Shown in pieces: positions 22,025-49,400 of a stretch of 64,000 bases of DNA; position 1 is the first letter of the stretch; each line of letters opens with the position of its first letter. This DNA comes from Dudresnaya verticillata. Taxonomy: Eukaryota. The stretch spans positions 248,001 to 312,000 of the forward strand of contig OZ374558.1 of NCBI GenBank assembly GCA_977862235.1, in the 5' to 3' direction. The position numbers and the translations under genes are program-made. The notes beneath the pieces are model-generated. The model saw only the letters and a list, made by a program, of their open reading frames with translations, did no database searches and was not told the DNA's origin.

Positions 22025-22562
22025 TGTAAGGATGATGCGCCCCGCTGGCGTCCCTGCTGGCACCAAATTTGATGGCAAATTGCCATTGGGTAATTTATTG
22101 TGGCCGCTCACGCGGCCCGACGCGGTACTACCACTAATCCGTATTTATAACTGACAACAGTACTATTAGATTAATAATTACAGGTAGAATAGCTTAGAAT
22201 AACTCATAGGAGGTAAGAGCAATTCCGGCTCTGCCATGCTTAATAGGCCCCTTAGTAGCAGGGCCTCCTGAATAGAACCCTACGGTGGGTTTGGGTCTTT
22301 TCCCCTTTTTATGGAATTCACAGACTCACCGTACCTTTTTCCCCTTTCAGGCGCTCTACGAGCCTTGTCTCCGCACGACGGAAGCTCTGCGCGAGCTGGG
22401 TAGCGCCGCCCTTCCCTTTTCCCCTTTTTCCTAGGCTTTGTGCCTTTTTCCTCAAGTCTCTACCAACTCCCTTTTCCCCCGAGCTACCAAAGCTAGTGTC
22501 GGCCATAGGACAGGTGTCCTGGTTGTTTCCGTTCTATCTGGCCCCGTGGCCATTCTACTACA
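22025..22562. repeat. LTR-like segment truncating the Gypsy RNase H
   Basis: TGTAAG...CTACTACA; resembles 50925-51638; abuts RNase H exactly at IYT(D). Confidence 0.5.
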
Positions 22563-22846
22563 CCGTATAGATGATTGAACGTTTCCCGAGTTGCGGTAAT
22601 CGGAGTATCGACGGTGAGAAGAGCTTCCGTTTGAGCGTTTCGAATGCGGTAACCTCATACGCCGTGGGACTCTCGTAGTCAGGATCTGCGTCCTTTCGTG
22701 TCATGTCCGTCAACGGTCGCGTAATTTTCGCGAAGCCTTTAACGAATCTTCGGTATACGTTACACGCTCCGAGGAACGAAACGACTTGAGTGAGTGTTTT
22801 CGGGAACTTAGCGTATCGGAATGCCTCGGAGCTCTTCTCGGCCATA
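22563..22846 (-). pseudogene. pol: Gypsy RT connection/RNase H start (downstream part of the element at 42508-46850)
   Basis: VVSFLGACNVYRRFVKGFAKITRPLTDM..AFETLKRKL..ILRLP; continues GKLSM|AEK across the DNA transposon. Confidence 0.9.
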
Positions 22847-23100
22847 AACACTACTTTCGAGATATTCAGAATCAACTTTACAAAACAGTACCAAATTGCA
22901 CCCCGGTTTCTTTAGCTCTGTGGAACCGGGAGCGTGCGCTGAGAACAACGGTGGAATCCGTTTGTCTGTAGCGTAACTAGTTCAGAAGTTATGGCGCACT
23001 AAGCACAGTCTGTACACCCCCCAAACGTTTCCGAAAGTTTCACACTTTTCCGAATTTCTGTAAAAACAATTTTAATTAGATTTTCCCTCACCCTGTGCGG
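22847..23100 (+). repeat. Left TIR (resumes at 27544-~27605 after the LINE)
   Basis: Reverse complement of ~42180-42507. Confidence 0.93.
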
Positions 23101-23860
23101 AACCAAAAGTCCTACAACTCTCTCTCCTTCTCCTTCTTTCTCGCCGTTCTCTTCATTCTTTGCCCCTGCTTTTCGTTCCTGTCTCTGCTGCTAGCGTGCG
23201 CTCCTCGCGTGTCGCTCGTTCTTTGCACCGCTTCCCTTCGCCGCTGTGCTTCGCACCGCTGCTGGGGGCCTCGGCGCTTTTCGCTTGTCTTTCCTTCCGC
23301 TCTCGTCTTTTCGTTGTCGCTCGCCGTTGCTTCCACTTCCCTTCTGTATCTGGCTACGCCCTTGCTACATCCTATCATACCGTCACCCAATGCGACGAAG
23401 CGTGCTAACAAACCGTCTCCGGAGTCTGCCTTTATTGGCTTAACACACCACGCCCTTGACTTTCTTTCCGATGCTGCTGGTCTATTGGACGGCGCTGTCG
23501 ATCTGACCGATTCTACCTCCGTCGAAGCCTTTATTCTCAATCTGTTCAAAATTCCCCGCGTGCAAGCTGTTCTACCGACGTTTTCTCGCAATCCTCGTTT
23601 CGCCTCGCTCTTGCGCATTCTCTCCGCATTCTCCCATCCTCCGGGCTGCCAGGGTGGCAATCCTACAGTGTCCCTTCTACCCTCTGCATCTACTCCGCCG
23701 GATCTGAATCCATCCTCGGTCCCTGCATCTTATCGTCATGCGTTCGAACGAAATCGTGTCGTGCCCTCCCCCGCCTCCTAAGTCCACCCGCAATCTCTCC
23801 AAGCTTCCGTTGCTCGGTCGTGCAGGTCGCATTTAACAGGACAGCCCCGGTGCTACTTCT

Positions 23861-24586
23861 TTGGCGAAACGTTTCGCTGGGTCTGTACGTCGTACTACCC
23901 GCGCCCTTTTCGGTGGCAATGAAAAGCGCTTCGTTCGCGTCACATCTCCATCGGCTGATCAGCGGGTGGCCGTTCCGTCTGAGTTTCGTTCCGCGCTACG
24001 TCAGGGCGGTTTTCCAGGCGCCGCCACTATTCTGCCCACTTCGAATGCTTCCTCTTTCTATATTTGCGCTGCCGAGAGAGATCTTCTATGCGCTGAAGCT
24101 GCTTACAAGGCGTGGGCAGCTTTAACGTGTCAGGCTGACAGCTTTACGGCTCCACAGCTCTCCTTCTCAGCAGTGCTCGATCTTCGCACTGCACTTTCCG
24201 ACCCAAATGACATTCGAGCCGTCTATCCCTACTTGCGCGCCGAAATTCTGCGCTTGGAGTGTACAAACTGCACGTGGGCGCCCGCCAGGTACTTCTCGTG
24301 TTCCCTTCGAGCCCTCGATACGGTACTATTCGAGCGACTTCTCGCGTCTGGAACGGCACAACCCAGTGACGCACTTCCTTCGGCTTCCGAGACGCAATCT
24401 GTGCCTAAACGTCGCCGTGGGTACCCGACGCTTAGCGCTCCCGACGCAGAGGGTTTCCAAACCATTCTCCCGAGTCGCCCTCCTGATTCTCCATCTCCAG
24501 CCCCATCTCATCCTCACGCTCCTGATTCCGTCTCCGCTCCTGTTCCACAAGCTACTTATCCCGCTGAAATGGACTTGGAAAACTGA
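23861..24586 (+). CDS. LINE ORF1-like region (likely extends upstream across a frameshift)
   Basis: 241-aa ORF whose TGA overlaps the RT ATG (TGATG); 228-aa ORF upstream in another frame. Confidence 0.5.
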   Translation: MAKRFAGSVRRTTRALFGGNEKRFVRVTSPSADQRVAVPSEFRSALRQGGFPGAATILPTSNASSFYICAAERDLLCAEAAYKAWAALTCQADSFTAPQLSFSAVLDLRTALSDPNDIRAVYPYLRAEILRLECTNCTWAPARYFSCSLRALDTVLFERLLASGTAQPSDALPSASETQSVPKRRRGYPTLSAPDAEGFQTILPSRPPDSPSPAPSHPHAPDSVSAPVPQATYPAEMDLEN

Positions 24587-27474
24587 TGGAGCCATATTCA
24601 ACTTTCGAACCCTGTCCCGGTCCTGATGGTGTCTTTCCCCTTCGAATCCCTACTGTCAAATACCTTCCGAACTGCCTGCGTGATGACTGGGATGCGCTTA
24701 ATCATCATCTCTACTCGTCTTTCTGTCGTGCACGTACTGATAGCGAAAAAGTGGAGCGTCTTGCTCGCATATGTGCGGTTGGAAAACTTGTCCTGCGTCG
24801 CAACGGGCGGGGCGAGCCTCGCTCTCGCAACCGCGCCACCTGCACGCGTCTTCTACGCGAGCGACTGCAGCTCGCCATCCGCGGCAAATGGCTGCAGCTA
24901 TATGATTTCGCTACCTGCGCGTTCGAATCGCTACCCCGTTTCTCCTCCCCTTCATCCTCGGGACTCGATTCTACTCGCCGATGTCGTCAACTGATGGCCG
25001 ATGGCGCAGTATCCAAGGCCGCCGCTGCTCTCTGCAGTGGCACAACCCCTGTTCTCCCGACGCCGGCTACCTACCACCATCTCGAGGCTCTCCACCCTCG
25101 GCCGCTCACTCCTTTCCATTCTGCCACAAACGCTTCTCTACCTCCTTCCTATGATTTTACGGAGGCGGATTTTCGGCGCGCCCTCAAGAAGCTACCATTC
25201 CACAGCGCTCCGAGTCCTGATGGTTTACGCCCTTCCATTCTCCGCCACCTTGCACATGCTCCAGGCGGTTCGGAGCCTGCCCGTTCCTCTCTCACTGCCC
25301 TAACGGACTTCTTTAACCTGTGTGCTCGTGGCGGTCTCCCCCGTAAAATGCGCCCTTGGTTCTCCAGTGCGCTGCTTATCGGCCTTCCCAAGAAGCCTGC
25401 CCCTAAGCTCCGCCCCATAGCCATTGGCTGTGTGCTCCGCCGTTTCGTCTGTCGCCTTCTTAACCAATGCGCTTCTCAAGACTCCAGCATCTTAAATTAC
25501 CTCCGTCCTCACCAGCTTGCTGTTGGTGTCCCCAACGGATGTGAGGCCTTGGTTCACGCTACCCGCGCGGTGGTGGACAACAAAGCATCTGAAGACTTCG
25601 TTCTTTTGCGTATCGATGCAGCAAATGCCTTCAATATAATCGACCGTGCTCACTTGCTTCGTCAGGTTATTCAGTATGCTCCGCGCCTCGCCAAGTTTGT
25701 GCACTATCTTTTCTCCAGCGACCCCCTTTTACTGTTCGGGCCCCACACTATCTGGAGTCGCACCGGAACCCAACAAGGGGATCCGCTCAGTATGCTACTC
25801 TTTGCCCTTGCCTTTCAACCTCTCTTTGACCAGATTATTGCTGCCTTCCCCGACCTTCCCTTGGTTGCCTGCTACGCTGATGACCTCAACATTGTTGCTC
25901 CACTTTCCGTTGCTTCTGATATCCTTTCATTCTTACAAGATCTTGGAGCCCCTATTGGTTTCCGGATGCAAATGAATAAGACCGAGGCGTGGTGGATCCG
26001 ACCGCTCCCCACACGCCGCTCGGTTGTCACCGCGCTTCCATGTCGTCTGAACCGTTCTCCATGCATTGATATTCTTGGTTCCCCTGTCGTTACCGGCCAC
26101 GGGTGCCTCCAGTTTACCCAGCAGCGCCAAAGCGCTGTGCAGCATATATTTTCTCGTCTCTCCGCACTTGGAGATCCACAGTTGGTGTGTCACCTCCTTC
26201 GTTACTGCGCTGGTGCTAGTAAGCTCGTGTATCTCCTTCGAACAACCCCACCGCAATTTACCCGCGTTGCTGCGTGTCACCACGACAACAACATGCGAGG
26301 GGTTTTCGAGGAAACGCATGGGGCTCTGACCACCAGTGCTTGGGAATTGGCCGGTCTCCCGCTACGCCAAGGTGGTTTGGGTCTCACGCATACTTCATGG
26401 TTGCCGGATATTGCCTTTCTCAGTTCCGTTCTTGCCTGCTTGCCGACGATCACTGCTCTACTCGGCGTTTCCGGTTTTAGCGCTCGTACTATCCTCTCTG
26501 CTCCTTTACGACGCGTGCAGAGCATTTTATTCCTCTCGCCATCTGCCGCACCCTATTCCATGGACTCGCTACTGGCTTGGGGTTTATCCACTGCCTTCCA
26601 GCCCACGTACGCTCTACAACACGACTTAACCAACCGGCTCCTGCTCCATAAGCTCTCGACCCTGACGCCTGCCTCTCACGATGCTGCCGACATCCGCACT
26701 CGTCTACGACTTCAATCTACTAGTACCTCAAACTCTGCTCGCCCATTCAGCACTATCCCTTTTCACGGGAGTGATCTTCGCGTGGAGCCTGAGATCTGGA
26801 AGACCATGGTCCGCCTTCGTCTTGGTCTCCCGTTGTTCAGTGGCGACCTCCCATGTTCTCGCTGCGCAGCTGGCACCCGCTCCTCTATCCCTCTGCTTGA
26901 ACGCTATGGGCACCATGCCACAATCTGTGGCGCTCGCGAAGGGTCTATCCGTCGCCACAACGGCCTTCGGGACAAACTAGCTGCTCATATTAGTACAGTT
27001 GCGCTTCATCATGGTGTCCAACTTCGCCTGGAAGAGCCCTTTATTGATCCATCTGACCCCACCCGCGACCCTCTTCGCCTGGACATCTACGTGGACGATC
27101 GCAGCTTTGCCCCAAAAGCACAAGCGTTCGATGTCTCTGTCGTGAGTCCCCATTAATTGCCGGTCAGAACCGGTCGCGTTGCTGGTCAGGCCATCCTTGC
27201 CCGCGAGAGAGCGAAACGTAACCATTGCCGTGCTGTTTTTGATCAATATGACACCGAGCTGCACCCGATGGTCATTGATATATATGGACGCACCGGTGCT
27301 GGCTTCGATATCGGCGCTCAAGTCTTCGCCAACTTTCTTGCCGAAAAGAAAGGCACTTGCCCGCTTGCTGAGAAGCATGCTCTCTTGAATCGTCTTGTAT
27401 CCTTTGTTTCGCAGTTTGTCGCCGTCAGCGTCAATCGTCGCCGCTTGACTCCTGCAGATTTGCCTCATATGTAG
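24586..27474 (+). pseudogene. RT + CCHC + restriction-like endonuclease, one in-frame TAA at 27154
   Basis: LRPIAIG, QLAVG, DAANAFN, GTQQGDPLS, YADD, LPLRQGGLG, CSRC..HATIC, RRHN, RLD..DVSV..E..K. Confidence 0.93.
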
Positions 27475-28192
27475 TGCTTAAGAGTATCCAGTAGGGATGC
27501 TCTAGCTTTATGCTTTTGTAAAGTGAAGTTTACCCCTGTGCGGCCCCAGGGACGCCAGCGCACTCACCTCACCACCGCTGTCGCCCCCGCCCGCCGCCCC
27601 TGCACCGCACCGTCCCCGCACCACGCCGCGCGCACCATGCCGCCCCTGCACCACGCCACGCACACCACGCCTCGAGAACTGTTGCCGCCACCCCCGCTCG
27701 CCGCCCCTGCACAATGCCGCGCGCACCATTGTCGTCGCCCCTGCTCCCCTCCCCTGCCCAAAGTGCCAGCCCTTCGCGCATTTGCGCACCCGGCCTGCCC
27801 GCGACGCCCCTGTACATGACGTCAGGTACCTGAAGGGCGTCCCTGCGCGGCGACCGTGCTTGCCCAACAGGCACTTGACGTCCTTGCTAGGCGTCCCTGC
27901 TCACTGCGCATGGTTGCTCTACCTGCATGTGTCAATCCTGGGCACAAGCACTGCAGTCAGGACATGCACTGACAGACTGTAACAGTACCCTCGCTTCATC
28001 CCTCCTCAGTCCGCCTCGCGCCACTTCCCCTTATCACTGCCGTCCCACGTGGGTGTACACCCACGACCCCGTAATTCGCTCCCACTCTGCTCTTGTGCTC
28101 ACCTTCTGTCTCTAACCAGTGGTATCGCAATGCACACCGTCCGTCGCCATCGCACGCTGCTGCGAAAACGCCACCTTTATCGTATCTGTACT

Positions 28193-28867
28193 TCACCTTC
28201 TGCAGTACTCGTACGGGATAGTCCCAATGTCCTCGGTGATTTCTCTCATATTTGCTGCATGCCTGCAGCAATTGTATCGCCTGCGGATTATGTTTGCCAG
28301 CCTTGGTGGTTCTTTCTGTTCTCCATTCTTAACCTCATCCATGCAACCGCAGAGCGGATCGATCCACGTGTCGCAGAGTTTCACTTTCGTACTGCGCCTC
28401 TTGAACTCCTGCCATTCCCGCCCGTTGTACGCGAACTTGTATTCCCCCCTGAAGAAACGCTCTGAATATGATTGTGGTCCTGACTGTGCTGATTCTGCCC
28501 CGTATACACGTTCGTAGAACTCTTTGAAGTTACTTCTGGCGTAGAGGCGCACACCGAGGTCTGCAAGGCCGAGTACCTCCTTCTTCTCCTCGATGGCACT
28601 GCTCACTTCTCGAACAATGAGATACTCTCCGATTCGCTGCACAGCCTCCTCAAGTGTCTCCCCAGGCTGGCAGTACTTGTGAAGGTCGAGAATATGCATT
28701 CTGCCCTTCCCTGACGTTGTAGATTCCTCTTTGTTACATTCTGTTTCCTCACCTGCGCCTGTCCCCGAATCAGGACTCCCAGCTGAGTGTTCGGGGTCAA
28801 TCTCTTCTTCATCACTGCTGATTTGTATCGCCTCGTCCACTTCGATGGCCTGTGTGATGTCGCCCAT
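28193..28867 (-). CDS. Cargo ORF, acidic N-terminus and Cys-rich C-terminus
   Basis: 224-aa ORF with C..CGC..CC cluster. Confidence 0.45.
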   Translation of the reverse strand: MGDITQAIEVDEAIQISSDEEEIDPEHSAGSPDSGTGAGEETECNKEESTTSGKGRMHILDLHKYCQPGETLEEAVQRIGEYLIVREVSSAIEEKKEVLGLADLGVRLYARSNFKEFYERVYGAESAQSGPQSYSERFFRGEYKFAYNGREWQEFKRRSTKVKLCDTWIDPLCGCMDEVKNGEQKEPPRLANIIRRRYNCCRHAANMREITEDIGTIPYEYCRR

Positions 28868-28959
28868 CTCTAACGTGCGCCAAGGTCAATTTCCTTGTGC
28901 TGGCCAGAACGCGACCAATTCGTGTGCTAGGGGCCTTCGACATGTGCCATCTTGTAAGA

Positions 28960-29530
28960 TCTAGAGAGTTCGTAATGCCATACAAGTCTCCGCAGCAGAC
29001 TGTAATTTCTTCACGTATGTGGAAGCACAGTACTAAAGTGCAATAACCGGGATGTGACACGGAAAGGGCGTGTCCACACTTTTCACGACGTTTTTATAGC
29101 CATAAAACATCGCGGGAACGGAGGACACATGACATGTGTCTGCACATTGTCCAGAAACATCCTTCAGATTCCCATGACGTGGTTCACAGTTCTGAAACTG
29201 ATGGACATACCGGCCTCTGTACAGTGCTATTATGGCAACGGGATCAACAAATTTCTCAGTAGGAGCGTTTCTGCTCCTGGTCTGAAACATATGGGGGAAG
29301 GATTGAGTACGAGGGCATTACCAATAATTCTGGTGTGACTTCATACGCATATGCGTTGGACACATTCCTACCGTGAGATATGCCGCGAGCTATACTTGCC
29401 TTGTGATTCCCGCAGGAATGCGCGCTTTTTCAACTCTGTACGGTCACTATGGTGCCTCTAGCTCTTCCTGTCCGGGCAAAAGTGAGTTGTAGTGATTGCA
29501 CATACTCCTGCGCCCGCAGGCCTCGAAGAC
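28960..29530 (-). pseudogene. Possible degenerate SET-domain remnant
   Basis: GAGVYA near 29500, QNCEP near 29190, IREEITVCCGDLYG near 29000: SET-like motif order across broken frames. Confidence 0.3.
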
Positions 29531-29717
29531 TATTTTCCGGTACAGTAAAGTGGCTTCGTTTTCACTGCTAGAATGGTTTTGAAGCAGTAACAGTGTAAAA
29601 GGAGTTTGATCCAACCGATATCTCCTACCCAGTTACTACACTTTCCCTAGGTCCGAAGTCAAGTTGTTCATCACGATCATCTCTTTGCACTTGCGACAGA
29701 CCACCTGCATGTGCGCC

Positions 29718-32706
29718 ATGGGCAGAAAATCCAACAGAAGGAAGAAGACGCCCGTGACAAATGACCGTAATGAAGTCAGTCTGCACCAGCAAACGATTCA
29801 GTTCGCTGATCTGCTTGACGGTTCCATGCTGAAGTGTGTCGATCCCCGGGCTTGTGTACCCCTCACCAAGGTCAGGCCGATATCCAGGTCCGGAGTTGAA
29901 CGGCTCAAGCGCATTTTTATCGGACTAGGAGGGGGTACAAACCAGGGGGTGCGACATGCTCCCGAGTCGATAGGATATGTCGCAGGGAGCGATATGCCAG
30001 TGATTATCGAGCTCACGGGAGCCCTTCGCAAGCATGCAGGAGACTATTTTCGAAGTTCTCGGAATAGGGAGGGAGCGTACCGTACGGAGAAGGAGATGAA
30101 AGAAATCATCAGTTCGAGAGGAGTGTGGTATGGCGTTGTAGATGGCATGCACCGGCCGGTTGCAATTATTGAGCTCATGGACATACACTACGAGATATGG
30201 AAGACATTCTCGAGGCCGGTTATGCATGTCAGGGGCGGGGCGTCTCTGCAGGTTCTGAAACAGTTTGCAAGGCACCAGAACCGCAATCATCAGTCTGCTT
30301 GTTATGTAGAAACCACGTTCTTTGACACACTGAAAGGCCTGCACGAAGAAGCCGACCGTCTGCAGGCTGAAGCCAATGGAAAAGAGCCGACAGCGAAAGC
30401 GGTTGCCGCGGCGTTTTATGGTGCTTCTCATCTTCACGAGAACACAATCAGGAAAACAGGCCAGGTTGTTCTTCGATTGCATAGATCGGTCCTAGATACT
30501 ATCGGGGAGATTGCAACACAGGAGGATGCAGACTTGGCGGCCTCGACTTCCCTTGGAAGTGCAGGGGCTGGAAGTTCCAGGCAGCTCGTAATGTCCTCGG
30601 TAGACTGCCGAGTCTATCGGGATTTTATCCATATATCGTCACTGAAGTCTGCTACAGTGCTTATGAATGCCGGCCGGTCGCCAGACGGGGTAGAGGCTCA
30701 AATATGTACCTTGAACAGGCTGCGGAAAAGGGCCAGAATGCATAATTTCAGACCTGCACCGTACAAGGTCACAGTCGAGGAATTCGAGAGAGCAAGAGAC
30801 GCGTTGATAGAAGCTAGGAAGTTCGAGAGCCTGAGGGAATCCCCGAATTGGCCTTCAGCTATGTCCGTTATGAGGACCAATCTGTTGCACACGCGCAAAC
30901 TGGACCTGGACGTTATGTCGAATCGTGGAAACAATCACATACTGAAGACGATTCTTACCATGTACCGAGAAAGTTGCCCAGGGGAGGCCCCACAGAAAAT
31001 AGAGAAATACAACAGCAGATAAGAAGTTGCGCAGGCACGAGTACCGTCTAGCACAGATCCAAAACATCCTGAAGAAGAGAAGAGCCCTGGAAGTCACATG
31101 AAACATGTACCGTCTGGAGTGCTCTTGAACAAAACTGCTTCACAATGTACCCCACAGACAGATACGGAGAAGGAGAACGACGACAACCGCAGTGATCCCG
31201 ACCACCTGGGCTCCACTGCGAGAAGCACAACTCCGGATGAGTCCCTTCCTGTGATCAACGGGGATGAAGGAGACGCTGTCACACCTATCCCTTTGCCCTC
31301 AACGGCCACTACGATAAGATCGGAAAGATTGGATACTGTTAAGAAGCTTAAAAGGGATAATAGAGACGATGTCGCAACACCGGACGAGATACTGAAATCG
31401 GAAGGCCTTGGGTGTGACCAAATATGCTGGCAGGACTACAACCAAAAGTACAGGAAAATTGAGAGCAAACTGTTGGATTTCATTCTGTCGGAAACCCCGT
31501 ATGGCACCCCTGCCTCACAGTCTCGAGCTGAGAAAAGGTATGCCAACTACCTCAGTACTTCAGAAATGAACGAGTTGGCTGAGTTTTGCAGGCAGACAAT
31601 CGCCCCGGGTGGTTGGGTGTTCCTGTTTGTGTCATTTCAGACCTTTGAGCACATGAGGCAGGCACTTTCAAAGAATGGTTTCGACTACCCAACGTATGCA
31701 TTCGTGATTCTGAAGGGTACCGGACTGTTCAGGAATCCAGGGGCAACGAAAGGCCACAAAATGGCGCAGACATAGCCGTTTTTGGGAAACCACCGGGTGT
31801 ACACCCATCCGGTTCAAAGGTAGACTTGAAGAGCCCCTATCACTTATTGAAATGCCAGGAGAAATGGAAGTTCGCATGCATGTCGACTGTCCCAGTCTCC
31901 AAGAAGAAACTGTTGAGACCTCAGACAAGATCCCCGGTGCTGACCGAAGAAAAGAATGTTGACTTGCTCGCGGAAGTTCTGATGACGTTCTGTGCAGAGC
32001 AAGGGCATGTCTGGATACGTACGCTGGCACGATGACGACCTGCATAGCGTGTCTTGCCACTGGTAGGAGATGCGCATGCATCGAGAAAAATGCTGAAACG
32101 TTCAGACATGCACACGGAAGGCTATCGCGACTGGCGCAAGACGCACAACGTGTAACCAAGGTAGCCCCTTTGAAGGAAATATGTACTGCTCCCGAACAGG
32201 CGTCTGAAAAAGCATGTGAAACGGGCTCAGAACAAGCTGCCTGGCAGGCGGGTAGCTCAGAGCGTAAACGAGTGTGTTCCGAAGGGGCGCCTGAACAGAT
32301 GGAACCGTTGGCCAAGCGGCAAAACGTCGAGACAGGAGCAGTACCTGCTAAGGTCAGGTGACGGAATGATAAACAGGGAGAAGGGGAAGATGTGACCCAA
32401 CACCGAGAAGTCAGTGGGGGAGATGAAGTCACTCTCTTCATTGACAAGAAGGCTGTAGGAACTTCCAAGGTTCAGTTGGGGGTGGACGGGGCGCGATTTC
32501 TGGATAGCATCCATGGTACTGCGTTATCCTCTTTTCAAAGAGAAGGTCAGCACCTCGTCGCAGTCTATGCATTCAAAGCGGCGACGAAAAGCTCCCATTT
32601 GCGATACCCGTACTCATACCGGGAGATAGACAGTGAGATACTGGCAACTCTGAGTGAGATCCAAAGCGTGTTTGCTTGGGACGTCAATCAGATGGCATTG
32701 ACATGA
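29718..32706 (+). pseudogene. ParB-like + beta-class N6A/N4C DNA methyltransferase + Tnp1-like accessory domain fusion
   Basis: ParB-like VRPISRSGVERLK..YGVVDGMHR; in-frame TAA at 31020; motif IV-like LDFILSETPYG; APGGWVFLF; EKNVDLLAEVL..GHV/LDTYAGTMTTCIACLATGRRCACIEK (motif I, 1-nt frameshift ~32010); in-frame TGA at 32359. Confidence 0.85.
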
Positions 32707-32892
32707 ACTCACGAGACGAGCTTTTCATGGTCATCGTCGAATTGGGCGAGTTTCCTGAGATTAGCATGCGACCGTTCGCAAAGACGCCTTACAATAACCC
32801 GACACCAGCCTGCTGGCGCTCTACAGACAGAGATTCCTGCCGCACATACGTCTCCGCCCCTGCAGTGTTTGGCATAAGAACGGAATCGACCA

Positions 32893-33280
32893 GACTGCAA
32901 CGTTTCGTTTGCGGGGCTGACAAATTCGGTGCGCGTCGCAATCAAGAAGCTGGGAGGCAATACATCGCCTGATGAGAAGGTCATTTTGGGAATGCGCAAC
33001 GAAGAGCGGGTAATAGTTGACGTAGCCGCGAGCTTCCAGGAAATGGCAGTGCGAAATCTGGAGCAGCGCGCGGGGGGCGCCCTGCAGATTTGCGCTGCAC
33101 ACAAGACAGGGGCGCGCACGCTGGTTGTGTCGGACAGCCGTCGGTGCGGCGTCCAACGCAGTGGTGAGAAGGCGGGTGATTGCGGCGTGCGAGCGGCACG
33201 GGTGCACATGCGCCATCCCGTCCAACGAGTTGTGCACCGCGGTGCCAAAACAGGGTGATGGATGTGCGGGCGATAAGGCC
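32893..33280 (+). pseudogene. Captured C-terminal fragment of a TsaD/Qri7(OSGEPL1)-family t6A enzyme
   Basis: DCNVSFAGLTNSVRVAI, DVAASFQ, TLVV, (frameshift) VGAASN..R..IPSNELCT..VM match FSFAGLKT/AASFQ/GGVAAN/LCTDNGVM. Confidence 0.8.
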
Positions 33281-33842
33281 GCTCGCCGGGCTCCTCGCGC
33301 AGCAGGAACGAAAAAGCTCCGATAGCTATGTGCTTGTCTCGTGCGGGAGAAGCTATTCCGTATTATTGATAATACGATGACAGTTCTGATTGCTTGTAAA
33401 AGGCGAAAAGGTTTCTGAAAGCTTCCCTTTCTGCGCTGCAAAGAGCAGCTGTTTCGTTGTCCCAGGGCCCACAAGGAAAATATCTGTTCAAAAGCTCTAC
33501 TTTCGTATGAAATACGAAGCCTTTTTAGATATTCCGGTTCTGGCCGTATCAATACCCAATCAGAAGTATTTGACAGATCATTTCCATGAAAAGCTATGTT
33601 GTATTATCCATACTACACCTACAGTTTCGCGGAGCTCGCCCTTTGCAAAACCTAAAGTTTCGTGTCGCGACCCGCTACTCCGCTCGTGTTTCTCCGACGG
33701 GCCTCACCGACCGCTCCCAATCCCTCCGCCCAGCCCGCGTACCCCAAAGAGCCCACGTCTCCCAACCGATCGCACCCCGCGCCTCCGCCTGTCCCGCCCA
33801 CATCACACATCCGACACTCCGGAGACCCGCGCGCAAGCCCAT

Positions 33843-36000
33843 TCACCCGTAATGTATCAATCCCAAGCTCGCAGGACTTCGCCTCCTCCGCCGAGTCACA
33901 CGACGAGTAGCGTCTGCATAGCTGTCGCCTTCCTCATGGCTTGAATTGTCAACAACGAGACCAACCCTGCTCTCAGCCGCAAGAATCCAGTCCGTGAAAT
34001 GCACCTCCATCTGACATAATCGGTCGTCACTATCGTTACCAGGAGCAACAGAAATCCAATCTGCATAGTCAACTGACGCGCAGCTTGGGTCAATAACTTC
34101 ACGCAGCAGTACCGTTTTCGATGGCACTAAGACGTGAAAGCTGTCAACAGATTGCTCGAGAGTCCTTTGGCGTCTGACCGTTTGAGATTGTATCCCATCT
34201 CCTCTGGGAGCCGCGCGCCGCCGCAACGTCGAATTCATGATGCTACTTTCACGTCTACCTAACTGGAGCTCGCCCAGTAGAGGATCTGTCCCGTCAAGCA
34301 GTACTTCATTAGACTGGGAAGATACTTTTCTCTTCTCGGGTGACGGCAACATCATTTCAGTACACTCCTGATCAGACGCGCTCTTCATATCTTCGTTAGC
34401 GTCCCGACCGAGCCTGTCGATAAACCCGCCTATCTCGCGATTGTTTGGCGAGCCACCCAAACCGTTCAGAAAGAACTCAACAGCATCTTCAATGGTTTGA
34501 ACTCCATTCTCGAGCAGAATGGCAGTAACTGGGAACTCCGCTTTTGCAGGTCTGGATATCCCAGAAACCCCATCGTCTTCAGAGTCCTGATTATGCCGTA
34601 CCCTTCGCCGCCGCCTGGTTGTGCAGCTCGAAGCAGCCCGTCTGGACTTAGAGTTGCTTAGCGAATCGACAGGCGAGCTACGCTTTCTCGACGAGGCGGT
34701 TTGAACTCTTCTTCGTTTCGGACGAATTCCGTTGGTCTCTTCCTGTACTTGCTTTGCACTTGACTGGATGCGCCTTCTCCTTCTCGACTGCGTCGCGATA
34801 GGACTTCCTGGAGTAACTGGCGAAGTGCGGTTCTGCATAGCTGTTGCCTTCTCCCCTGCGGGCAATCGAGATGGGATGGGCGAGATGGGATCCACTTTCG
34901 CAGCGACAGGCGTCGAATGAGAAGAGCTCGTACCCGCATCCTTTGCTTTCCGCGAAACATGCATCCTAACCGAGTCTTCTCCCTTCGCCTTCTGTCTTAC
35001 CGGAGTGATCGAAAGATCCATATTCCTATGGGCACCAGCACTGCCCTCCTTCTGCTCTAGAAGCGCACGCGAAACTGGTAGCCCTCCACTGTAGCTCATG
35101 CATGACTTGGTATCCAACAGCGGTCCGCATAATCGATTTTGCTGCTGGAACATAACATAATGGCTTGGATAAGCTGAGGCACGCGCTATAAGGTCAATGA
35201 TGAACGCAGAGCCGAGGAAAAGCACATCACCTTCAAGCATGGCAGCGAGCTCGCGTGTGTGCGTAGGGTCAAGTCCAGGAGCAATGATGGAAAACGTGGG
35301 GCGTTGCTCCACATTACGCACAAGCACAGCGCCAGAAGCACCAAGCACATCCGCGATAATGCCATTCGTCGGTGCAGTCCCCAGCCAAGGCGCGGCCCCG
35401 GCCTCTCAGGCTTTCGATCGAGAACGTCTTCCATCCATCTCAATGGCTGTATCTCCAGAGACTGCTCGTAGCATGTCGCACCGGGACACCATCACCTTGC
35501 GCGCCTTCGATGCAAATGCCGACCAACGTGCTAAGCTCGTCGCGTCTGAATTGTCGAAGTCGAACAATGTCATAGGTATGTACGCTGATCCTGCAGCAGA
35601 AACGGACGATTGGGGTGATGATTTCGTCCTCGGGGAGTCCAGTTCAAGACCGGGAGATCAGTCGAGTGGCAATTGGACCGTTGACGAGGGGCCTGCAAGC
35701 TTCCCATCATGGTTTATTGAGAAGGACCCCACGAAGAACGAGTTCGAGTTCAAACTCGAGACACCGCAGACTGTCGCATCGCTTCCTGTTCGCAATGTGT
35801 ACCAACCGTCCACAGCTGAGATTCTCCCAGGGGGCGATGAAACGTTGCGCATGCGTAGCATCTGCACCGTCTGCTTCTTCTGCACCGCGCTGCCGAATCA
35901 GACGCACTATAAATCAGGCTGTCCGTCTTGGCGGTCAAGGTGGATGCCCAGAATGAAAGGAAGGAAGAAAATCAAGATCCCGGGAAACGAAGGCCCCTCA
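33843..36000 (-). pseudogene. Large unidentified cargo gene (501-aa open part, same frame upstream with stops)
   Basis: ORF 33843-35348, in frame with 35658-35885. Confidence 0.5.
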
Positions 36001-36278
36001 CGAACGACATGGTCAGGATCTATTGTTTCAAGCATAAGCGGTTCTACCGTGCAATACTCTTCTCGAAATTGCCTACATGACGAATCAGTTTTTGCTGCGA
36101 AAACCTACAGGAGAACTGCGCCTACCTAAACCGTGAGAATAGCGTCCCAAGAGAGCTCCTGTGCGGCATTCGCTCCCAAGCAGACGCAGCCGTCATCGCA
36201 TCGCTCCTCGGCGCACTTGCCGTCTGCCGCGACTCACGCCCGCCGCCGCATCAGCTCTCCGACCCAGCCCCCCAAATC

Positions 36279-36782
36279 GTGCCTACCGAACATCTAATGC
36301 AGGGTGCATTCGTCAATACAACCCCCATCAAGCCCCAGCTCATGCCGACATACGACCCTGTCGCATATCTCTCATTGCAGCTAAAGGAAGACGTTCATGC
36401 CGAGATGGAGCCAAATCCCACGCTTGAGAGAGACCTTGGCAGACAAAGGCGACGTGCAGAGCAAATAGGGGGCGATACAGGATACACGCCAAACGATGGC
36501 GCAATTCCAGCTTTGTCCGTTACGGCGACTCAGACGATTGCGACCGAGGGTACAGATAGGGTTCAGACAGCTGGAGCAGGGTCGGACGACCTCGGAGACA
36601 CGACGTCTACGAACGAGCGGGTGGGGCAAGGAGAGGCGGAGGCGAGTTCTTTCCTCGGGTCTGTGGTTGCGTTTGATGAGCACGAGGTGGTGGCATCGCT
36701 TAGCAGAAGAGTTGACCAGCCACCTCTAACTGTTGAGGAGGTTGTTCGAATCAATCTTGGTGGAAGGGCCGGGCGGGCGTGA
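36279..36782 (+). CDS. Unidentified acidic ORF
   Basis: 167-aa ORF, no motif recognised. Confidence 0.3.
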   Translation: MPTEHLMQGAFVNTTPIKPQLMPTYDPVAYLSLQLKEDVHAEMEPNPTLERDLGRQRRRAEQIGGDTGYTPNDGAIPALSVTATQTIATEGTDRVQTAGAGSDDLGDTTSTNERVGQGEAEASSFLGSVVAFDEHEVVASLSRRVDQPPLTVEEVVRINLGGRAGRA

Positions 36783-36866
36783 GAGCAATGTTGATGGAAA
36801 CGAGGATAAAGCGAAGGGGAAGTAAATCAGGGCTCTTCTGAAGCATGCTGCACCAAGGGGTTCAAG

Positions 36867-37259
36867 TCAAGCGATCCCCGGTATGCGGGTCGGAGTGCGG
36901 CGACGGTAATACTCATACGGCTTGCCGAAGAGACGAACGAGGTGATACTCCTCGACGGGGATGCGCTGGTGGAAGAACCTCCACGCGACAGAGGCGAAGG
37001 CGGCGGCGCAGACGGGGTTTCCGAGCAGCAGCTGCGTGCCAACCGCCCACACAAGCCATTCAAGATAGCCAGGGTGGCGGCAGAAGCGGTATACGCCGCG
37101 CGTGATGAGGCGATGGCCCGAGCGGTAGTGCGACTGAATGCGATGCGTGAAGTCGCGGCGCGCTGTGAGCCACGCAGACAGGCGGAGGGTCTGGCCGAAG
37201 AGCACTAGCACAGCGCCCGACGGGAGCAGCACGGCTTGCACGGACGCCTTGGGAGCCAA
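36867..37259 (-). pseudogene. ICMT: Captured C-terminal half of isoprenylcysteine carboxyl methyltransferase
   Basis: GQTLRL..FTHRI..HRLITRGVYRFCRHPGY..GTQLLLGNP..FF..RIPVEE..L..FG..YEYY: Ste14/ICMT signature; N-terminal half absent. Confidence 0.9.
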
Positions 37260-37378
37260 TATCGGAATGACCTACCGTCTGTCTGAAGCCCAGCTGAATA
37301 CTTTCGGACTAACGCTACAACTCAATGGTGCGGTCTCTATTGGGTAATTACTCAATGCAGGTATGCAATCATTGCGCA

Positions 37379-39616
37379 CTAGTTTTGGTGGAGACTCTCG
37401 CGAATCTTGTTATGTACATTGACGGGGATACGCGAAGTGCCCGTTAAGCCACTAAATTCCACAAGCACCGAGCCAGTTGGAATCTTCCCGATCCGTGGCG
37501 CTTGGTCATCTAAGATGGAAGGTTGATATCGCAGCCTATAGGCGTCATGCCGTTCTTGCTCAATTGCTTCGTACCAACATATCTGCAGCTGCACAGATTG
37601 TACCTTCCGGCCTCGTGTGCTCCGCAGCACGTCTTGAATCTTCGCAATGTAGAATGGGCATTCTGGAGTGCTGCCCTCATAGCGAACGGCAACGAAACTA
37701 TTGCGCGAGAATGGGACTTGTATGTCCTCCATTAAGTCTCTCTCGTTTTCGCCGGGAAGGAACTCTACCTCGTTCTCTTCCAGCCCTTCCCTTGATTATT
37801 TCCCATTGGTTTCCAAGACATCTTCTAGATTCCAGTGAAAGGGTTCCATTCTGTACCGATAGATGTCGTCCCGCAACTTCCGAAGCTCTTCAATCTTTTT
37901 TATGTCCTTTATCCGCGCTTCTTTAGAACGAATGCGGTCCCCGACTTCTTTCAAATCCGGGGGAGCACGGGCCCGAGTTGGAGGGGTTTTGAACAACTCA
38001 GGGGGAAACAAAATGAAACCCTTCTGCGCACTGTATGTGCGTAGGGGTTTCCATTCACCGTCGCACTGTATGCGAGCCTGGCACCCCGTCTTGAAACGAG
38101 CATTAACTCCTTCCGGCTCTCCTGCCACCCTAAAGAACCGAAAGAACCTGTAATGTGAAAAGGTTTCAACCTTCCCTACACACTTAGAATCCTGACAAAG
38201 ACCTGAGAAGTTTGGAATGTGCAGTATTCTTGCAACATGCGGCTCCGGCTGGTAGGATTTGCTCAGCTCCTCTATCATTTCATCCATAGTGATGTCATCT
38301 CTTGTATCCAACCTCCTTAAGGTACAACTGAAAGTCTGATCAATATCAGAATGAGTGTGTCCTATCGGCAGAAATGAGGCTTGTGCCTCTTGAAAAACGC
38401 CCCACGCTAGTAGACTTTCCAGGTAGGAGAACATGAACCTGTTCTTGTTCTCCCTGGTACAGTTGTCCATCTGCAGCAGAAGCGTTGGTTGCAGATTCCC
38501 ACTTGCCTTCCTGAGGCTGAGCGATTGGTGTATTGCCTCTATTACATGATTGGCACCGGATTCGTACTCCGCTGTCATGACGAAAAGGCACAACCTATTC
38601 TTCGGTCCGTGTTCCAGAACCCCTATAAGTTTCACCTTGATTGCGTGACCTACTGTAGCTTTCGTATTCACAGCAAAGTGCGGCAGTCCGAACGCAGACT
38701 GGTCTGCGCCGTCTACCACAATCTAACAATACTCTTCAGGAAACATTACAGCTTTTTCCGAAGTCTTCTTGTAATGCACCCGCTCCTTCCAGACCATGGA
38801 CAGATGCTGGTGCCTGCGCATCCTAAACGGCCTCCCCGCCCGCTTGCCGGTTCCCGCCTTGGCAAGTCCATCGCGAATCTCCTCACATTCTGTGCACTTC
38901 GTAAAGCGACATACTTTTCGGACCTTAATTTGGGAACAGTATGCCTTCCACGTAGCGTAAAAGTAGCTCGCGCTTGCAGGTGTCTCACCACTATACAAAA
39001 GGCACTGGTCTGTTGTGAATTGCTCGTACACAGTCTTCCTGTCAAAGTATGGCAGATGCAATTCGGCTCTGTCCGGCATATGGTCTGCAGTAGCTTCAGC
39101 AATCCTCTCGAGGTACGAAACGATTCTGTCCCGTTGTTCAGAATTTGCGTCTCGCGGAGTCGCAGCGGAGAGGGACAACAAGCCGCCAAACGTCTTGACA
39201 GACGTTTGAAAATCCCGTGAAAACCCGAATGCTTTCTCTAAGAAATTGTAGCACACCAGAGCACCATTAAACCGGTAAAACCTGTCAGGCTGGAGCAGGC
39301 GGAATAGATAGTCCCTTCTTTCGTTCTTTTCCATCATCAGAACACGACGAGCTTCGGCCTTGAGGTAAACCTGCTCACAGGCCTGGAAACATTTCTTTGT
39401 AGAACAGCACTTCTTGCGCTCCCAATCCTCCGTGTCTATCCTCTCTAGTGCAGCCGTACGCCTTATCATAAAGGCAGTCTCGCCCTTCTTGGGCCTCTTA
39501 CTAACACGTGAACGATAACGATAAACTCGCTTCTTAACGGCACCAATGCCCCTCGTACCGTTTCCTCTACGCTCCTCAGAACCAACACGATCAGCCTCCG
39601 CTCTCTGCGTCCTCAC
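37379..39616 (-). pseudogene. Sola-like DDD transposase (single frame, stops at 38723 and 37796)
   Basis: LHLPY, FTKCTEC, VDGADQ..LPHF, QMDNCTRENKN, FLPIGHTHSDIDQTFS; C-terminal PFYIAKI..ICWY module. Confidence 0.88.
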
Positions 39617-40749
39617 CTCGGTTTAGGTCAGAGAGCATTTCTGTTCCATCTGCCACCTCGTCGGCAGGTGCTGCCACTTCATCAGCAGGTTCTGTCTGTG
39701 CGCCACCCCGAGTGAAAAGGTCGATAGTGGATTCCGAACCCTCACCTTCTTCGCGACGGTCTTTCCCCTCGCTTGCTGCCACCACCGCCCCCTCCACGTC
39801 ATCTTCCTCAGCTTCCTGTTCTGCTCCTGCTATCTGGTCTGCATCCTGGTCTGGCCCTGCTTCGTGGTCTGGCCCTGCTTCGTGGGCTGGCCCTAGTTCT
39901 CCTACGGTCCCTGGTTCCGCTTCGGCCATACCGTTGTCGTCTTCAGTGATCCCCTTCTTCTCGTTTTGAATAATGCGGTTTTGCTGGCTTTTGAGGGCGT
40001 GGTCGTAACGGCGGCTTTTTCACCGAGGTGTACTGCAGGGGAGATTCCATATCTATATCATCTTCAAGCACAATGTCACACCTTTCCCCGGGTGACATGA
40101 ATGGGTCCGGATCCTGCACGACTGTCTCCCGACCTCCGGCATCTGCTGCTACAGGCGTGCGAGGAGGGGTGTTAGGAGGTCTTGGGCTGCGAATGGTGCC
40201 CTTACGTTGGCCCGGTGTATGCACAGTACCGGAATCAGGGCATTCCTCCCGGTCCCTTTCAAGTAGCATTGCCTCTCCAGGGTTCATCTCTGGCCCAGAC
40301 TCCATCGCCTCCTTCAGATACACAGCCATCATATCCTCCAACTGGTACAAATCCCAACAGTGCTCACCTTTATCCATTTTTTGTAGCATCTTGGGAACCG
40401 CCCTGTCAGATAAGTACTGAAATGGGTTGGGGAGGCGCTCTGCTCCGGGTAGGTAGTGCAATCGGTGGCTCGCTACCCATACCTCCCCGGGGCGTTGCTG
40501 CTTACTGAGAAAATGGCCGCCAAGGACTGTGCAGAAACGACCGCTTGGGTCCTCCGTCCCGGGCGGTGGCAGCAAGAGAGTGGCACAAGCCACATGCTGT
40601 CCTCCGAGAGTTAGCGAGACGCGCGCACCCGGCTTGACATGGGGTTGAGTAATACTTACCTCCGCGGATGCGGGGCGACCTGAGGCTTCTTCCATAGCGT
40701 CAAAACGAGGCAGTAGGGGCTGGTCCGGCGATGCCTGGGAGGGGGGCAA
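39591..40749 (-). pseudogene. Upstream ORFs of the transposase locus, including a Tnp1/Transposase_23-like small domain
   Basis: GARVSLTLGGQHVA..LGGHFLSKQQRPGEVWV..LPNPFQY..HCWDLYQL parallels 32392-32706. Confidence 0.55.
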
Positions 40750-42179
40750 TCAGGAGAGCTCGGAGGAGGTCGCCGCGAGGGTAAAGGTGCAGTGCAGTCA
40801 CCCATCGTTGGGAGGCATGTCTTAAATAGGCGAGGTTTGCGATTATCGGCAAGACTCAGGGTTCCAATTACTGGGTCAGGAACGAACTACCGCACAGTAC
40901 AGATACTTGGTATCGCATTCTGCACAGATTCTGTGGTGCGTAGCGAACCGCCTTCCAGAACGACTGGTATCGCAAAAAATCATTCTTACAAACGCGAAGT
41001 GATGCGCCAATGGCAGGCAGCGCAGAGGATAGGAGGAGTACCCCCGGCCTTAATACTCGTCAGGGTATAACCTGGTCTAAAGGCCCGGCGTGCCTGTCCA
41101 GGCTTCACAACAACTCTGCGTCGGCGTGCGTGCATCGCTGCACAATTTGGTGGCAGGTGCGCGTGCCCATCCAATTTGATCCCGAAGGCCAAATCGTGTG
41201 ACCATGTTGTTCTGCTCGGTTCTGTTAAGTGCAGATGCGGCGAAAAAGGGTATTGTGAATCCAAGTACGGTCACGGTTGAGATTGTTAAAAAGCGTGTCA
41301 TGGATATGACTAGAGAGTAAGGAAACGTTACCATCGCGATTCTTCTACAGAATCGCAGCGCAAAGATTGCCGCCGAAACGGTGATGTGAGAGACCCTGCC
41401 TCTGTTCATCAGTCGCTTGAAGAGCTTCTGGAAGGAGCTCCTTTCCCAGCGGGGCGCGAGGTGTAAATGGGGCATGTATTGTGTCCTTGTGAAGAATATA
41501 CAGATGTTACAGAAGAGAAATACTCGTTCCCAGCTCCTGCATACACGCTTGTAACAACCGCAGATGGCATAGTCATTGGATACGTTAAGGCGGAACAGTC
41601 ATTACTAATTCGCAAGTTCACCTGTCGCAAATGGGAAAAACTGGATGTACCTATTGTTTCAAGTAATAGTCACTTCGTTGTTTGCGAAGCACAAAACTGG
41701 CTCTCACGCAGCAGCAAAGCACGAAACAGATACACGTTCGCGCAGTATGCGTGCCACGCGCCCATCGAAGCACGCATACCCCGTTCGCGGACGTGCACCT
41801 CGAAGCACACATACGCTACTCACTAGCAAATACACATTACCACTTGGGAATATGAAAGACTCCCATGCCCCTCGTTGTTGCCTAGTTAGCAACCGCCTGA
41901 ATGGCCGTACCGCGAGACGTCATTCAGCTCTTTGCATTCATAACTAAACTGCATAATGGCGCTTCTGAAGAATATAGCATAAAGTTGTATCCAAGGCGGC
42001 CGTGCTAGCATCGATGCTGGATCCAGCGTCTCACAAGCCACGGGAAGAGTGTGCGATGCAGCGAGTAGGAGGGCCGGGTAGGAGCGGCTGGCAGGGGCGA
42101 GATCAGTGGTGTGGCGAGTGCGCTGGCGGCCCTGGGGGCAAGCTGGAGCGACAAGCAGACGCACGGAAATCAGGTCGGC

Positions 42180-42507
42180 GAGCAGGAGCGGCGGTTAGGA
42201 GCGGCTGGCAGGGGCGAAAGTAGTGGTGCGGCGAGTGCGATGGCGGCCCTGGGCGAGAGCAGGGCGAGGGAAAATCTAGTTAAATTTTTTTTGCAGAAAT
42301 TGGGAAAAGTGTGAAACGTTCGGAAACGTTTGGGGGGTGTACAGACTGTGTTTAGTGCGCCGTAACTTCTGAACTAGTTACGCTACAGACAAACGGATTC
42401 CACCGTTGTTCTCAGCGCACGCTCCTAGCTCCATAGAGCTAAAGGAACCGGGGTACAATTTGGTACTGTTTTGCGAAGTTGATTCTGAATATCTCGAAAG
42501 TAGTGTT
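42180..42507 (-). repeat. Right TIR
   Basis: Ends ...ATCTCGAAAGTAGTGTT followed by CATA. Confidence 0.93.
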
Positions 42508-42720
42508 CATACTCAGCTTCCCCGGGGAAATTGCGTGTCCGAGATAGTCGACTCATTTTCGGAAAAGGAAACACTTCTTCATCTTGGGTACAATTTGGTA
42601 CTGTTTTGCGAAGTTGATTCTGAATATCTCGAAAGTAGTGTTCATACTCAGCTTCCCCGGGGAAATTGCGTGTCCGAGATAGTCGACTCATTTTCGGAAA
42701 AGGAAACACTTCTTCATCTT
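42451..42720. repeat. 135-bp tandem duplication spanning the transposon right junction
   Basis: 42451-42585 repeated at 42586-42720, GGG microhomology. Confidence 0.95.
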
Positions 42721-47722: not shown

Positions 47723-47880
47723 GCGCACTGTAATGCGAATTGCCATCGTGGTGCGCGCGATCACGAAGTCAGCACGGAATTAGTGCGGAGGTGTCAGCGA
47801 TTTCGTATCGCGTGCGCACTGTAATGCGAATGCCATCGTGGCGGCCGCACAGCGCACTGTAATCCGTTTGCCATCGTGGC
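47723..47880 (+). repeat. Three copies of GCGCACTGTAAT..TGCCATCGTGG
   Basis: Direct reading at ~47723, ~47814, ~47852. Confidence 0.7.
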
Positions 47881-47899
47881 ATGCGCATTCACGGAGTCA

Positions 47900-49400
47900 C
47901 TTCGAAATTCGAATTTCTCGATTATTTTCGCGTAGACCACGGAGTCGTTTTGCGCGCAGCGTCTATACCAGACAAACGTTCTGTCTCAATGGAAACGCTC
48001 AGTTCCTTCGGTGCTTCTCTGATACAGGGAGATCATATTCTCTCGTTCGACTGGCGAGATGGGTATCGACATTTTGCTTTTCATCGAAAGATGTGGGATA
48101 TGTTCTTATTCAGATACGATGGGAAGTTTTACAGATGCATAACATTGCCGTTCGGGTGGACACCGCTCGCCTTACTGGTTCTGCCACCTATTGAGCCCAC
48201 TAACCCGGTTCATGCGTTCTGTTTTACATTGCAGGATGCCAACGTGGATAGACGACTACCATTTAATCCCCGGGAAGGGGAAAATACCCAGCAGTACAGA
48301 GGACTGCCAAAGATTATCAGAAAAGCTGGGTTATCTGTTTTTATCTCTTGGGCTAGAGAGACATCCCAAAAAGGGGGTATGGGGACATGGCAGAACCCGG
48401 ATCCAACATCTCGGGGTTATGTTATGTTAGGACACTGAGGCGTCTCTAAATAAATCACACATTTCGATAGATACTCTCGAATTCAGGTACTACATTGTTC
48501 CCGAGAAGCTGCACACATTGAGAGACCTGGCGACATCTCTTCTCCGAAGTGCTGCGAAGTCCAAAAGTTGGGTACGAGAAGATCTGAAAGGAAGCAATCG
48601 AAGACTGGGAAGCTTCCCCGAGCAAAAAAACTTTCCAACAAGGGAAAGCGAGACCTTCGAGCTTGGCAAACTATGCTTTCAGGGGATGGGAGACTCATCT
48701 ATGGCGGGGAGAATCGTGGTCGTTGCATACCGACGCGGCCGATGTCGGGTTCGGGGGGATGTCGGGACAGGATATGCCCCCAGGAGCCAATGGGGTTATC
48801 CAGGTGCAAGTAACATGGTCTCCTTTCCTTCGACTGCTGTCTATTACCTACCGAGAGCTTGTTGTCGTCCGCGAGACTTTGAAGGACGATTTAGTACGAG
48901 CCACATTGTGTGGAATGCCACAAACTGTCCGTCTACATGTGGACAATATGGCGGTTTTCTATATTGTGAACAACATGGTCCCATCCAAACCAGAATTGAT
49001 GGAGAAGTTGCGGCGACTCCACAGCCTCCTCCAGCCCATGCGAATTTCTCTTCGGGCAACTTAAATACCGACGGCGCTGAACCGACACGAAGACCGTCTC
49101 AGCCAAGCATGGGACCCACGTGACCTCGCCGCGGCGCCTTCCTTGCTGAAATCGTTAGAGGTGTCGCTGAAGCTACAGCGCGTACACAGGCACTGACCAC
49201 TGAAGGAGGCACCCGCCGCCCGCGCCGGGTGATTCGAGCTCAGTTCGCAGAAATGTGGGGGACGGTTTTGAGTCGGCTATGGAATCCCCCGCCGAAGTGG
49301 ATCGCCCTCACACTGATCGGTGGTTGCGAAACGCGATCGTGTCCGAGACGGCATCGCGGGGTTTTAGGGAAGGGGCACGTGGTCTTGTCCAGATGTAAAA
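47900..49400 (+). mobile_element. DIRS-like retrotransposon remnant (RT, RNase H, possible methyltransferase motif)
   Basis: SMETL, SFDWRDGYRH, LPFGW, WIDD, IQHLG, LHTDAA..GFGG, ITYREL, VDNMAV, WNPP. Confidence 0.8.

Follow-up and report, generated by a model that had tools for sequence, protein, structure and literature searches.

A decayed giant DNA transposon, probably of Sola1 type, with a broken ParB-methyltransferase gene in Dudresnaya verticillata

Sola elements encode DDD transposases. In layout, the described element closest to the one analyzed here is Sola1-1_Ec32 from Ectocarpus, which, according to the accessible sections of its report (PMC12477816), is 21,549 bp long with AACCG-CGGTT ends, has a 282-bp imperfect terminal inverted repeat (TIR) and a target-site duplication (TSD) of 4 bp whose final base tends to be A, finds its best match in Sola1-1_PPa, and carries on the strand opposite to the transposase a gene for a 1,104-amino-acid (aa) ParB-like protein with an N4C/N6A methyltransferase, for which self-modification was proposed. 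The same sections state that giant families often contain nested transposable elements and pseudogenised transposases (PMC12477816). The present analysis concerns an element at positions 22847-42507 (19,661 bp) of a 64,000-nucleotide stretch of Dudresnaya verticillata contig OZ374558.1 (positions 248,001 to 312,000; hereafter the window), which can be identified with high confidence as a decayed giant cut-and-paste transposon and which joins a kind already described in 2025 for a brown alga. The best explanation overall, held to be reasonably probable, is that of a decayed giant, probably Sola1-type transposon whose intact form would encode a transposase together with a self-methylating ParB-methyltransferase.

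Like Sola1-1_Ec32, the window element is about 20 kb long, its TIRs are imperfect (about 310-330 bp), its ends start with AAC (AACAC instead of AACCG), its 4-bp TSD ends in A, and a gene for a ParB-like protein with an N4C/N6A methyltransferase (about 1,000 aa) runs antisense to the transposase. The likeness is one of layout: as far as the available description of Sola1-1_Ec32 goes, the window element is a different family with a different terminal sequence, probably from another host lineage, and it also carries fragments of an isoprenylcysteine carboxyl methyltransferase (ICMT) gene and, probably, of a TsaD gene. The preliminary description of the locus had considered the element undescribed, unless a family with this cargo were already catalogued; Sola1-1_Ec32 has the same layout in the sections accessible and is, in spirit, such a family (PMC12477816).

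Several other systems share part of this design. In the red alga Bostrychia, giant Plavaka (EnSpm/CACTA) elements with PAG1-3 have been described (bioRxiv 10.1101/2025.02.11.637652), and the word Sola is absent from the main text of that preprint. As far as the available portions of the preprint indicate, those elements belong to another transposase superfamily, have a methylase-SET and a ParB-2OG oxygenase as separate genes whereas ParB and methylase form one protein in the window element, and, in the case of PAG3, lie next to inverted-repeat arrays, none of which were found beside the window methyltransferase. Phage ParB_N + N6_N4_Mtase fusions and the beta-class enzymes M1.HpyAVI, M.BceJIV and CcrM share domain order and methyltransferase class with the window protein, and clusters of such phage fusions are among its nearest Atlas look-alikes, with scores below 0.9 that give a lead only. 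However, the phage fusions have about 450 aa against 850-1,100 aa for the element proteins, which possess a long helical insert and an extra C-terminal domain, and identity to phage methyltransferases is 23-28%. The chlorophyte-type Dam family, bearing at its N-terminus a helix-turn-helix (HTH) of the ParB type, likewise combines an adenine methyltransferase with a DNA-binding part of ParB type in one eukaryotic protein but, in the accessible part of its description, is placed in another structural group, related to DpnM (PMC4738411). VANDAL anti-silencing proteins and the TET/JBP proteins of KDZ/Plavaka elements are, from the partial accounts available, also transposon-borne accessory proteins that alter the epigenetic state of their element; these remove or oxidise cytosine methylation, whereas a protein of the window type would add an amino-methyl mark. 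In the literature searched, with Repbase/Dfam, subscription journals and bioRxiv supplements outside the search, no red-algal Sola element with ParB-methyltransferase cargo was found. The additions made here to this prior art are modest and consist of evidence for co-inheritance, a shared domain of about 100 aa, and clades lacking the DPPY motif.

The boundaries of the window element (Table 1) are marked by the CATA duplication on both flanks and by the interrupted reverse transcriptase (RT) frame of a Gypsy element, a label which, like that of Helitron below, we take from sequence motifs. With one CATA copy counted, this frame reads through the insertion site as GKLSM followed by AEK. The insertion order is Gypsy first and then the Sola-like element, the former being older because of the nesting. 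A TIR of only 249 bp, obtained in a first reading, was dropped when a 4.4-kb long interspersed nuclear element (LINE), bounded by a 10-bp TSD, was found to split the TIR on the left; on the far side of this LINE the similarity to the right end resumes, fading after about 310-330 bp, and the left inner part runs into GC-rich subterminal repeats (27592-27671). With the LINE discounted, the TIRs of about 330 bp and the roughly 15 kb of own sequence given in the preliminary description are about right, the element's own length being 15,218 bp, and its CATA duplication and Gypsy read-through were both found again. The RT open reading frame (ORF) of the LINE (24568-27156) has YADD followed by a Cys/His and RHN motif, which presumably resembles that of restriction-like-endonuclease LINEs, and the LINE may have entered either before or after the jump of the element. 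At the right tip, a 135-bp tandem duplication, which the preliminary description does not mention and which takes in the terminal 57 bp of the right TIR, the TSD and flanking sequence, may be a recent local duplication or an assembly artefact. Two further observations on these repeats can be added: TGTACACCCCCC is present in both TIRs, and two copies of the palindrome core GGGTGTACACCC lie within the element (28048-28065, at 28051, and 31795-31806), both of which observations may be due to chance.

With regard to the transposase, DUF7869, which we take to be equivalent to Sola1, is the sole family above cut-off for the window protein and for eight scanned relatives, none of which passes the cut-off of a Plavaka/EnSpm or KDZ transposase family. 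The protein comprises an N-terminal domain of about 100 aa, also found in the methyltransferase, followed by a low-complexity linker, a Cys/His region, three Asp residues and a C-terminal domain. Its motifs read DGADQ, QMDNC and GHTHSDIDQ, and all three Asp codons (38711-13, 38465-67 and 38339-41) are retained, in agreement with the preliminary description, which had recognized a DDD-type, Sola-like transposase by DGADQ/QMDNC/GHTHxDIDQ. Relatives were collected by a search among longer proteins, the best 120 of 138 being used throughout (37-60% identity); the Asp of DGADQ, QxDN and DIDQ is conserved in 120, 119 and 120 of them, respectively, and a C..C..H group upstream of the Asp triad is conserved likewise. 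Judging from this conservation, the three Asp residues probably form the DDD catalytic triad; a search of solved structures with the transposase profile found no relevant relative. The gene itself is broken: stop codons lie in frame at 38723-25 and 37796-98, and the linker upstream contains frame breaks. TIRs and a 4-bp TSD are present as in Sola elements, as are three Asp residues in the window protein and its relatives. The Sola2 motif set DF(A/S)ENY...SDGA..QYKN...ATSHGK, compared by eye as it appears in supplement S10 of PMC3627910, was not found, the relatives having instead DGADQ / QxDNCxRENKN / FLPxGHTHxDIDQ. Placement of the element in Sola1 is considered likely.

The methyltransferase gene lies on the opposite strand, tail to tail with the transposase gene. 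Its fragments in the window match PF01555 weakly (E 0.017 and 1.5e-4, below the curated cut-off), while its four closest long relatives, all single ORFs of 887-1,010 aa, match above the cut-off, and the ParB-DNA methyltransferase named in the preliminary description is in this sense faint in the window copy and clear in intact relatives. In a profile search with the methyltransferase, 225 representatives of clusters passed E<=1e-30 and 810 passed 1e-10, and PF01555 (E<=0.01) is matched by 45 of the 47 long relatives scanned. In the intact closest relatives, motif IV (DPPY) precedes the S-adenosylmethionine (SAM)-binding motif I, which is the beta-class arrangement; among solved structures, the best matches come from adenine enzymes of the beta class (M1.HpyAVI, E 3.6e-19; M.BceJIV, E 1.5e-15; CcrM, E 8e-11). 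Because of this motif order and these relatives, N6-methyladenine (6mA) seems the likelier product, N4-methylcytosine (4mC) being possible. The full-length fold predicted from a 4-sequence alignment is poor, with a predicted local distance difference test (pLDDT) of 38.8, and lends itself only to a weak test of the methyltransferase class.

Regarding the N-terminal part, a ParB/Srx fold is supported by a model predicted for the first 440 residues of relative P0207 (pLDDT 88.8), which aligns with PadC (Z 9.9, root-mean-square deviation (rmsd) 2.3, 97 aligned) and with KorB (Z 8.1, rmsd 6.5, 195 aligned), and for which the first ten Foldseek rows are Noc/ParB, the best E being 1.6e-3 and none reaching 0.001. 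In the ParB GxxR motif the glycine is retained in 93 of 95 rows and an upstream arginine in 90 of 91, and the window copy keeps GMHR. Three motifs can be located in the window gene, namely GVVDGMHR at 30132, ETPY at 31488 and DTYAGT at 32014. The methyltransferase of the window copy is, by its sequence, dead: stop codons interrupt it at 31020 and 32359, the frame changes twice (near 31720 and near 32010), and ETPY replaces the DPPY of its closest relatives. The DNA-modifying capacity that the preliminary description attributed to the lineage has not survived in this copy, in which both genes are broken, a fact left unmentioned in that description. CpG depletion is mild in the two genes (observed/expected 0.83-0.84) and uninformative.

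The two genes are tied together, first of all, by the unnamed domain of about 100 aa, which lies C-terminally in the methyltransferase and N-terminally in 11 of the best 120 of 138 transposases, in proteins such as P0006, P0007 and P0126, as well as in both window genes (32362-32703, plus strand, and 40330-40626, minus strand). Methyltransferase and transposase copies of the domain match with a profile-profile probability of 99.25. Sequence searches of Pfam, NCBIfam and PDB gave no match to it and do not support a likeness to Tnp1/En/Spm, a label that was given up; the tree of the domain is too weak to count moves between the two genes.

In addition, linkage was assessed by comparing the 21 methyltransferase clusters for which contig sizes are available with the best 120 of 138 transposases. 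Eight of the 21 lie on a contig exactly as long as that of a listed transposase, and seven of these are size-compatible, against 0.47 length-matched pairs expected from the local length density. In one cluster pair, five of six methyltransferase members match a transposase member in length and source, and on one contig of 5,994 bp the two genes must be adjacent because their coding sequence takes up 5,310 bp. The divergences of the two genes over the seven pairs and the window (30-66% identity) are correlated (Spearman rho 0.83; 3 of 40,320 permutations), a result that random pairing would not be expected to produce; in the transposase tree, from whose interpretation row P0123 was excluded, the paired transposases are scattered. 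The length-matched pairs and the correlated divergences suggest that transposase and methyltransferase constitute an old, co-inherited, tail-to-tail module of about 6-8 kb, the pairing extending over at least seven lineages and apparently being widespread. The methyltransferase might instead be a passenger without a role in the transposon, either a captured host gene or a separate nested element comparable to the ICMT fragment, as the presence of host-gene fragments and of the LINE in the same element would allow, and as would the switching of related accessory genes between transposon superfamilies in red algae that the available text of the Bostrychia preprint describes (bioRxiv 2025.02.11.637652). 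This reading is largely refuted, and has become extremely unlikely, in view of the repeated pairing with DUF7869 transposases and the correlated divergence, the domain common to both proteins, and the same gene pairing in Ectocarpus as far as its report can be consulted (PMC12477816). The methyltransferase is very likely a selected gene of the element and appears to be a regular component of the lineage rather than a chance passenger. Concerning the large cargo-bearing lineage proposed in the preliminary description, a regular, co-inherited methyltransferase is supported, but the size of the window element is partly due to the LINE (4.4 kb) and to about 4.7 kb of mixed cargo, and the gene pair fits on 5,994 bp in one relative.

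Assuming an intact copy, the DDD transposase would excise the element at its TIRs and leave a 4-bp duplication, as family knowledge suggests, while the ParB/HTH part of the second protein would recognise a site inside the element, perhaps the subterminal repeats, near which the fusion protein would methylate adenine on its own element. Such methylation might protect the element from host silencing or regulate its transposase, and the window copy would have been enlarged by the uptake of the LINE and of pieces of host genes (ICMT and probably TsaD). That self-directed methylation is the actual job of the methyltransferase has about even chances. Modification of the host genome, either at large or at the targets of insertion, would agree with beta-class enzymes being usually motif-specific rather than locus-specific, and with the outcome of a search for parS-like arrays beside the methyltransferase gene, which turned up no tandem array and only scattered palindromes, GGGTGTACACCC among them; yet the predicted ParB fold and KorB-like helical region suggest site-guided action, the published reading, in the sections accessible, is one of self-modification (PMC12477816), and action on the host in place of the element is considered very unlikely.

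A number of points weigh against the self-methylating Sola1-type transposon, among them the missing array just mentioned. Only 50 of 95 rows retain the GxxR arginine, and of 51 full-length relatives only 14 have DPPY and three DPPF. In a quick tree rooted at the midpoint, two supported clades lack DPPY and keep motif I, one with nine rows of the QVPR/ALPS type (Shimodaira-Hasegawa-like approximate likelihood ratio test (SH-aLRT) 99) and one with ten rows of EPPx/RPPx (SH-aLRT 98). As regards linkage, the eighth length match (P0160/P0025) was dropped, as 4,334 bp leave no room for both genes, and shows that chance matches occur; moreover, among the methyltransferase clusters with a contig of at least 5.9 kb, seven of 13 are paired and six of 13 are unpaired among the best 120 of 138 transposases, and the related loci recovered span just 840-2,570 bp and have no TIRs, the linkage resting on contig sizes. 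Finally, the sole insertion site, CATA, falls outside the AWWT target preference of insect Sola1 given in the accessible part of PMC3845634, although it is a single site, and the bias given for Sola1-1_Ec32 differs from AWWT as well.

The two DPPY-less clades bear on another possibility, namely that the accessory protein serves chiefly to bind DNA or to scaffold chromatin, be it as an anti-silencing factor or as a transposition cofactor, with methyl transfer dispensable or widely lost. Long open proteins that have a SAM-binding-like motif I and no DPPY are what it would predict, and DIRS1-borne adenine methyltransferase domains are likely inactive according to the accessible part of PMC4738411. 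Nevertheless, DPPY together with an intact motif I has been preserved in every one of the window's nearest relatives (P0126, P0127, P0128 and P0137), and proteins with DPPY are found to either side of the midpoint root; a scaffold role is judged fairly unlikely. A more elaborate version of self-methylation, also unlikely, would posit a deep and widespread algal Sola-like lineage in which a phage-derived ParB-methyltransferase has become fixed as second gene, loads inside the element as a CTP-gated sliding clamp, spreads 6mA/4mC over kilobases and is coupled to the transposase through the shared domain, the protein being a catalytically dead reader in two clades. The members of the two clades (P0190-P0213 and P0169-P0187) are long proteins and possible pseudo-enzymes.

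Scans for related loci yielded one locus of 1,003 bp in the metagenomes and none in the viral scans. A scan of prokaryote genomes returned DUF7869 transposase pieces (L002 and L003) on two contigs of bacterial metagenome-assembled genomes, of 840 and 2,570 bp, which are probably eukaryotic contamination.

The remaining cargo of the window element is listed in Table 1 together with its boundaries, 108 frames having been scanned for family matches. The ICMT fragment matches PDB 5vg9 (E 7.4e-28) over chain residues 162-276 only; ICMT is a protein methyltransferase and is unrelated to the DNA methyltransferase. For the weaker TsaD-like fragment no related PDB match was found. About 4.7 kb of such mixed cargo separates methyltransferase and transposase in the window, and we read it as a probable later acquisition of this copy. 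The 230-aa frame has an acidic N-terminus and a Cys-rich C-terminus.

Table 1. Features of the Sola-like element and its flanks, in window coordinates.
Feature	Coordinates	Strand	Evidence or remark
Downstream part of the Gypsy RT/RNase H coding sequence split by the insertion	22558-22842	-	Upstream part right of 42512
Left TSD, CATA	22843-22846	+	Flank comparison
Left TIR, outer 244 bp, begins AACACTAC	22847-23090	+	227/244 identical to right end
Nested LINE in left TIR	23091-27543	+	TSD CCCTGTGCGG at 23091-23100 and 27534-27543; RVT_1 E 8.7e-12
Left TIR, inner part, displaced by LINE	27534-27603	+	53/70 identical to 42195-42264
230-aa open frame, possible further accessory gene	28193-28885	-	No match in Pfam or NCBIfam
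Predicted fusion of ParB fold, helical region, beta-class N6A/N4C methyltransferase and C-terminal domain of about 100 aa	29718-32706	+	Broken
Probable captured TsaD/Kae1/Qri7 fragment (weak)	32878-33258	+	PF00814 E 0.0052; TIGR03723 E 7.5e-4
Unassigned cargo; open frames (520 aa, -; 318 aa, +; 233 aa, +) overlap one another	33843-36782	.	No Pfam/NCBIfam match
Captured C-terminal part of host ICMT/STE14 gene	36867-37271	-	PF04140 E 5.5e-27
DUF7869 (Sola-like) transposase	37379-40749	-	DUF7869 E 3.8e-44; broken
Right TIR, ends GTAGTGTT	42195-42507	-	Match to left TIR
Right TSD, CATA	42508-42511	+	Flank comparison
Repeat of 42451-42585, comprising TIR tip, TSD and flank	42586-42720	+	100% identity

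Gypsy-, Helitron- and LINE-like frames are also contained in the window. A Gypsy-like element at 8518-14651, with 610-bp direct repeats that are 100% identical and long gag/pol frames with a few breaks, is a very recent insertion, and at 3039-7704 a 504-aa frame without assignment stands between direct repeats (about 380 bp, 94%) that may delimit an element with long-terminal-repeat-like ends. Degraded RT/RNase H frames on both strands at 47863-49123 presumably belong to a DIRS-like retroelement, to judge by their motifs. Further downstream, a Rep/helicase region of Helitron type (55381-59814), with a coding repeat of 21-bp units, lies inside a second large inverted-repeat element at 52056-62797, whose arms measure about 490 bp (78% identical) and which also contains a pair of inner inverted repeats (60542-60734/62117-62309).

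As a dead copy, the window locus offers a well-bounded example of its kind and no new principle. The relatives are called as single long ORFs, which points to an intron-poor alga as host, probably a red seaweed, and in that case the element type would extend beyond the brown algae. The self-modification idea was put forward in the Ectocarpus report on the basis of one family, and the pairing of transposase and methyltransferase is now suggested to be old and widespread. Should the protein indeed act as a sliding clamp, these elements would represent a transposon-encoded, self-limited epigenetic marking system derived from bacterial partition machinery. Intact members with DPPY and natural clades without it make self-methylation directly testable.

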